Positions 1-206 of a stretch of 206 bases of DNA are shown here, in pieces (within the stretch, counting starts at the first letter, position 1; every line of letters starts with the position of its first letter). The stretch lies in the NCBI RefSeq assembly GCF_003334255.1, contig NZ_QOWU01000284.1. One strand, given 5' to 3'. The notes beneath the pieces are model-generated. The model saw only the letters and a program-made list of their open reading frames with translations. It ran no database searches and was not told where the DNA came from. Both the position numbers and the translations under genes were made by a program. Source of the stretch: Escherichia coli. GTDB taxonomy: Bacteria; Pseudomonadota; Gammaproteobacteria; Enterobacterales; Enterobacteriaceae.

Positions 1-206
1 TTCAACCGGCAGGTGCCGATCAGCCCGTACAACAGTGCACCACGCTCGCCGCCGTGATCGCTACCGAAGAACACGTAATTTTTCTTTCCGAGACAGACTG
101 CACGAAGCGCTCTTTCCGCTGTGTTATTGTCCGCCTCCGCCAGACCGTCATCACAGAAGTTGCACAACGCAACCCAGTGCTTCCTGATATACCGGAACGC
201 ATCTCT
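1..206 (-). CDS. IS66-family transposase (TnpC/orf3-type DDE transposase), internal fragment; partial at both ends. Codon phase: first complete codon is 206..204, last complete codon is 5..3.
   Basis: Seen in sequence: the reverse-complement frame starting at position 206 has 68 sense codons with no stop and no Met, translating to RDAFRYIRKHWVALCNFCDDGLAEADNNTAERALRAVCLGKKNYVFFGSDHGGERGALLYGLIGTCRL. Established knowledge: the blocks DNNxAERALR, G(K/R)KN(W/Y)xFxGSDxGGER and LIGTC are conserved in the C-terminal part of the catalytic region of IS66-family transposases. No homology search was run. The gene is conventionally called tnpC in three-ORF IS66 elements, but I cannot identify the specific IS, so the symbol is left empty. 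Confidence 0.85.
1..206 (-). mobile_element. Internal portion of an IS66-family insertion sequence; element ends, inverted repeats and target-site duplication lie outside the window.
   Basis: Inference from the transposase CDS spanning the window. No terminal inverted repeat or direct repeat is visible in the window, so completeness and boundaries cannot be assessed. Confidence 0.7.

Follow-up and report, generated by a model that had tools for sequence, protein, structure and literature searches.

The founding elements of the IS66 family are IS679 and IS66 proper, and the canonical organisation of the family is said to have been set out by Han et al. in 2001 and by Gourbeyre, Siguier and Chandler in 2010. 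To our knowledge, the chemistry by which these elements transpose has not been worked out. The element considered here, ISEc43, measures 2,541 bp, ends in the termini GTAAGCGT and carries the genes tnpA, tnpB and tnpC. Its copies resemble IS679 and IS66 in the order tnpA-tnpB-tnpC, in the 4-base overlap of tnpA with tnpB, in the start of tnpC 30 bases past tnpB, in the GTAAGCG ends and in the 8-bp target duplications; IS679 and IS66 are nonetheless different elements, for which protein similarity is expected at the family level only, and the likeness described here is one of organisation.

Two further systems are of use for comparison. A recent insertion of ISEc43 has been published for SGI1, where it is likewise flanked by an 8-bp repeat (PMC6531882). 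The transposase of ISCth4, a member of the IS256 family, features, in this order, D175, D241, a C262xxH265 motif within a helical insertion, and E348 (PMC7780238).

In this work, we describe the analysis of a stretch of 206 nucleotides of Escherichia coli DNA, referred to throughout, at its full length, as the window. We report on its identity, on the state of the elements which carry the same 206 bases, on its relationship to the sister elements of ISEc43 and on its place in the predicted fold of the transposase.

Identification of the window

The window is almost certainly an internal part of tnpC, the DDE transposase gene of ISEc43 (IS66 family), lying on the minus strand. In a nucleotide search of annotated genes, the tnpC of ISEc43 matched 206 of the 206 bases (100%) with neither gap nor indel, and the matched genes carry the PGAP label "IS66-like element ISEc43 family transposase". 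Position mapping, performed on plasmid pO86A1 (locus L003) and on the E. coli O104:H4 chromosome (L001), makes the window coincide with codons 433-500 of the 537-residue protein WP_000080172.1 (Table 1): this is 68 residues out of 537, or 12.7% of TnpC, in line with the one-eighth estimated in the first-pass annotation. Among complete E. coli genomes, 406 records contain a sequence at least 99% identical to the window, as do 137 records of plasmids, those of Salmonella plasmids included.

Protein profiles lead to the same result. The 68-residue peptide encoded by the window matches the NCBIfam profile NF033517, "IS66 family transposase", with an E-value of 3.6e-22 over positions 305-371 of 387, and the Pfam model DDE_Tnp_IS66 (PF03050) with an E-value of 8.3e-16 over positions 231-283 of 284. 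The score of the fragment on NF033517, 79 bits, is under the whole-protein cut-off of 180 bits, as expected for one-eighth of a protein; the full-length TnpC of a gene with an identical window reaches 448 bits on the same profile, and TnpB obtains 119 bits where 50 are required. These matches bear out the earlier assignment to an IS66-family TnpC, which can now be narrowed to the ISEc43 type. Nothing speaks against this identification; the sequence is an ordinary one, already catalogued, and the feature is a known one.

Within a phage collection, the window was also encountered, at 100% identity, at positions 3096-3301 of OR844780.1, a record named "Escherichia phage ECO111 5-P". Given its length of only 4,468 bp, this record is probably made up mostly of IS sequence and is not a phage genome.

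Table 1. Features of the window, with window coordinates, and lesions of tnpC in loci carrying the identical window, with positions in the gene
Feature	Location	Strand	Basis or remarks
tnpC codons 433-500 (ISEc43, IS66 family)	window 3..206	-	translation, 100% identity, position mapping, NCBIfam and Pfam
First two bases of tnpC codon 501	window 1-2	-	
Codons 433-450, RDAFRYIRKHWVALCNFC: predicted final pair of helices in the alpha-helical insertion domain	window 153..206	-	AlphaFold2 helices 431-441 and 443-451
Codons 451-476, DDGLAEADNNTAERALRAVCLGKKNY: DGxxxxDNNxAER...GRKN motif and predicted helix 460-475	window 75..152	-	
Codons 477-500, VFFGSDHGGERGALLYGLIGTCRL: end of Pfam DDE_Tnp_IS66 and predicted helix 482-500	window 3..74	-	Pfam limits, model
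Antisense of tnpC, codon for codon, stop-free	window 3..206	+ (frame 3)	by-product of codon usage
-1 frameshift, GGGG→GGG (L012, L015, L016, L017, L019)	nt 974-977, codon 326		L015 additionally cut by IS26
IS421 insertion (L009, L011)	about codon 202		
Truncation (L014)	about codon 85		adjoining an ISEc23
Truncation (L002)	about codon 318		
Three single-base deletions (L018, 2889-4499)	homopolymers G5, A7, A6		perfect 8-bp target duplication

State of the copies carrying the identical window

The reading which competes best with an origin in a live element is that the window derives from a dead copy, being what is left of a tnpC whose upstream part has suffered a frameshift, been truncated or received an IS, so that translation as part of a transposase has ceased; we give this reading slightly less than an even chance. 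It was weighed by means of a census, in which 19 loci carrying the exact window were fetched, 13 of them by following the order of the E. coli table and 5 from plasmid rows lacking gene annotation, and the tnpC frame was rebuilt from the sequence. The gene turned out to be intact, with all its 537 codons, in 9 of the 19 loci (L001, L003-L008, L010 and L013) and broken in the remaining 10, every lesion being located outside the window (Table 1). Among the 13 list-order loci, 8 are intact and 5 broken, and all 5 loci from unannotated plasmid rows are broken; these figures come from a census which is small and whose 19 loci are not independent, several of the plasmids belonging to one lineage. 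A rough cross-check of the 8 out of 13 is provided by the number of records whose best tnpC match is at least 99% identical, 249, versus 406 for the window.

A dead origin is favored by the ten broken loci, in which the same 206 bases stand behind the codon-326 frameshift of an IncF lineage, an insertion of IS421, IS26 or ISEc23, or a 5' truncation. Against it stand the nine intact frames of 537 residues, the six elements which sit at different sites between perfect 8-bp target duplications, and the absence of decay in the window itself, which shows zero differences from the intact reference. On the census of identical copies, the chances that tnpC is intact in the sampled copy are even or slightly better. 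Since the source consists of 206 bases without flanks, the intactness of this particular copy cannot be judged, as was already maintained in the first pass and as is illustrated by the nearly equal numbers of intact and broken genes behind one and the same sequence.

All the kinds of lesion anticipated at that time for IS66 copies (frameshift, insertion of another IS, truncation) were indeed found, and the check then proposed, reconstruction of the full-length frame, was run on the copies with the identical window: the intact ones show the 537-residue frame together with the leucine-zipper and zinc-finger regions. The further remark that the window would suit a copy which is functional, or was active recently, still holds but carries little weight, as some 40-50% of the identical copies in the sample are broken. 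The cautious wording of the first-pass annotation is, on the whole, appropriate.

The codon-326 frameshift is common to IncF plasmids of both E. coli and Salmonella, in which the frameshifted copies occupy one insertion site, between a gene for a PapB/FocB-type regulator and a gene for a TonB-dependent haem receptor: a dead ISEc43 copy is spreading vertically along with the plasmid lineage. The three deletions of L018, all within homopolymers, look like long-read sequencing errors; as this case suggests, some annotated pseudogenes may be artefacts.

Defects in the accessory genes are observed alongside an intact tnpC in two of the eight intact list-order loci. In L001, on the E. coli O104:H4 chromosome, tnpB is frameshifted (5533-5882), and in L006 tnpA is truncated by an IS3 (4880-5242); an intact tnpC is therefore no guarantee that the element works.

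At six different targets (L003, L005, L007, L008, L013 and L018), ISEc43 is bounded by perfect 8-bp direct repeats, which indicate that these transpositions were independent and fairly recent. Intact copies of ISEc43 are, we infer, active. The interior of xdhC, a DUF1281 gene and a copy of IS1 are found among the targets.

Relationship to sister elements

The sister elements ISEc23, ISEc47 and IS682 resemble ISEc43 in having a tnpC of 537 codons, colinear with that of ISEc43 and 88-91% identical to it at the DNA level. Residues 451-500 are almost identical between ISEc43 and the three sisters, whereas codons 433-450 differ at 20-21 of their 54 bases, ISEc43 featuring RDAFRYIRKHWVALCNFC where the sisters feature GEAFSYVLNQWDALCYYS; the following 150 nt of the window contain 5-13 differences. 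The divergent codons are part of a larger block: from about nt 1140 to about nt 1380, the tnpC of ISEc43 is 22-33% off ISEc23, ISEc47 and IS682, versus about 5-10% elsewhere in the gene. Many changes in this block are non-synonymous, and the 12-15 amino-acid differences found in the window cluster at codons 433-450. Such a distribution may reflect the import of the block from a more distant IS66 relative.

Exchanges of this type are apparent in other members of the group. The tnpC gene of L010 (2889-4502, minus strand), compared with those of L021 and L003, equals ISEc23 without a single difference from nt 1 to about nt 1150, and ISEc43 from about nt 1170 to nt 1614, the window being included in the latter part; similarly, the ISEc47 of L020 is identical to ISEc43 over the first 540 nt or so of tnpC. 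The IS66 elements of E. coli are visibly recombination mosaics. Because the window falls within the exchanged 3' block of ISEc43 type, it marks that block and not necessarily a canonical ISEc43.

It could, accordingly, be supposed that the window was drawn from a recombinant IS66-family element, an ISEc23/ISEc43 chimera for instance. The gene of L010 is precisely of this kind, and L002, whose identity to ISEc43 is 95.5% over 693 bp, reaches 100% inside the window. Along the entire 2.5-kb element, however, most sampled copies are identical to ISEc43 at 99.5-100%, and we regard a recombinant origin as improbable; a canonical ISEc43 is the preferred source.

Reading frame

Six-frame translation of the window yields, on the minus strand from position 206 to position 3, 68 codons free of stops, encoding RDAFRYIRKHWVALCNFCDDGLAEADNNTAERALRAVCLGKKNYVFFGSDHGGERGALLYGLIGTCRL. 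The open frame of 68 codons reported in the first pass is therefore real; its strand had been left unstated, and the gene lies on the minus strand. A second frame, frame 3 of the plus strand (window 3-206), is also free of stops over 68 codons. In 20,000 dinucleotide-preserving shuffles of the sequence, stops were absent from a given frame 7% of the time, from one frame or more of the six 50% of the time, and from two or more 11% of the time. With a given frame open in 7% of the shuffles, and a second frame open in the window as well, openness by itself is weak evidence of coding, within what is expected by chance.

The minus-strand assignment rests on homology, as provided by the profiles and the annotated genes, and on the distribution of substitutions. 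In the comparison of ISEc43 with ISEc23 over the whole of tnpC, differences number 37, 23 and 111 at the first, second and third codon positions of the minus-strand frame, respectively, and ISEc47 and IS682 behave as ISEc23 does, most of their substitutions relative to ISEc43 being at third positions. The gap-free identity with the intact ISEc43 reference implies that no frameshift is present in the window, which, along with the translation, upholds the earlier description of the 68 codons as free of both stops and frameshifts.

The plus-strand frame owes its openness to the absence of TTA, CTA and TCA from codons 433-500, a feature shared by 114 of the 470 windows of 68 codons (24%) which can be drawn along tnpC. 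That it encodes an unrelated protein antisense to tnpC is hardly credible and was rejected: although the frame is open in ISEc47, ISEc23 and IS682 too, its peptide matches no NCBIfam family and varies more among the relatives compared than the sense peptide does (16-23 versus 12-15 differences), the substitutions sit on minus-strand third positions, an in-register antisense frame opens wherever the three codons are missing, and a scan of the window found neither promoter-like nor terminator-like sites. The fold of the coding-strand RNA gave no structure signal (z = -0.24), which also speaks against a gene on the plus strand. No RNA family was found for the window in Rfam, even at permissive thresholds. 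The minus-strand tnpC frame is accordingly the one considered below.

Conservation and predicted fold

Searched with TnpC, a set of 1.84 billion representative proteins returned 43,972 relatives at E ≤ 0.001. Conservation was evaluated on an alignment of 110 full-length TnpC sequences, taken among the best 150 relatives and 32-48% identical to the query. In these 110 representatives, 40 positions of TnpC are conserved at 90% or more, and 12 of them fall within the 68 residues of the window (A435, Y438, G453, D458, N459, E463, G472, R473, N475, F478, G480 and A489), which makes this stretch the most densely conserved of the protein. At 11 of the 12 positions the window agrees with the consensus, the exception being position 473, where a conservative K replaces R. 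The residues distinctive of the DDE region (DNNxAER...GRKN...F.G) are thus present in the window, with the consensus found at these 11 of 12 positions, and the claim, advanced in the first pass, that the conserved motifs are preserved proved correct.

Conservation is unevenly distributed among the three segments listed in Table 1. Codons 433-450 form a variable patch, where A435 and Y438 are the sole residues to reach 90% conservation across the family. The central segment, codons 451-476, holds G453, D458, N459, E463, G472, R473 and N475, all conserved at 90% or more, the codon for E463 being located at window positions 114-116. F478, G480 and A489 reach the same level in codons 477-500, where the predicted helix 482-500 leads into the IS66 C-terminal element (Pfam PF13817, residues 494-530). 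In an intact TnpC, the complete Pfam layout comprises the leucine-zipper region (60-130), the zinc finger (138-182), the DDE domain (196-486) and the C-terminal element (494-530).

The best-conserved acidic residues of TnpC are D268 (100% of the 110 representatives), D332 (99%) and E463 (97%); the C355xxH358 motif, with both C355 and H358 conserved at 100%, falls between the last two. An AlphaFold2 model of TnpC, built on the 110-sequence alignment for the gene of L003 (3889-5502, minus strand), has a mean pLDDT of 93.1 and a pTM of 0.80. In the model, D268 is placed on a strand and D332 just past a strand, helices extend over residues 356-451, and E463 opens the helix 460-475. Conservation and predicted fold together suggest that E463 likely completes the DDE triad as its third catalytic residue.

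The solved fold most similar to the model is that of the ISCth4 transposase, of the IS256 family (PDB 6xgx and 6xg8; Foldseek E-value 7e-8, probability 1.00), with a TM-score of 0.50 on the target and a sequence identity of 14%. The order D268...D332...C355xxH358...E463 of TnpC parallels, in both order and spacing, that of D175, D241, C262xxH265 and E348 in ISCth4. In the ISCth4 structure, as in the TnpC model, an RNase H-like DDE domain is split by an all-alpha insertion which starts at the CxxH motif, and the catalytic E, for which E463 is the putative equivalent in TnpC, is carried by the helix after the insertion. Differences are also evident: TnpC has the longer insertion domain (about residues 355-451, versus 261-325 in ISCth4), and the N-terminal domains differ, that of TnpC being composed of a coiled coil and a zinc finger. 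Moreover, IS66 elements, unlike ISCth4, also require the accessory genes tnpA and tnpB.

When the PDB was searched by sequence and by profile, no structure from the IS66 family came up, and TnpC matched neither ISCth4 nor any other transposase of solved structure. The link to ISCth4 is, in other terms, one of fold similarity at 14% identity. Because it consists of a likeness of fold without a sequence or profile match, TnpC was not filed as a member of IS256.

Discussion

The identification of the window as part of an ISEc43-type tnpC is straightforward, and little is at stake in it, as standard pipelines already annotate this IS gene in thousands of records. The lesson is, rather, one of method: a short, lesion-free and conserved internal fragment of an IS transposase holds almost no information on the function of its parent element, or on which element the parent is. 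Identical 206-mers occur in copies which are intact, frameshifted, interrupted by another IS, truncated or chimeric.

Two observations, both of which reach beyond the window itself, are mildly new, namely the mosaicism of the E. coli IS66 elements and the link in fold between IS66 TnpC and transposases of IS256 type. In regard to the latter, our search of the literature found no paper tying IS66 to ISCth4 by a shared layout. That IS66 TnpC shares a structural class with the IS256 and Mutator-like enzymes, which operate by copy-out/paste-in, is a tentative proposal, suggested by the model, and one which we hold to be rather unlikely.

In terms of the predicted fold, the window would encode the two final helices of the insertion domain, then the helix bearing E463 and the first helix towards the C-terminal element. 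When the copy is intact, an RNase H-like active site, formed by D268, D332 and E463 with C355xxH358 of the insertion domain, would be completed by this stretch and would cut and join the ends of the element. If the proposal is true, the window would encode the hinge joining the insertion domain to the catalytic helix, and the IS256-like fold would suggest a mechanism for the transposition of IS66 elements.
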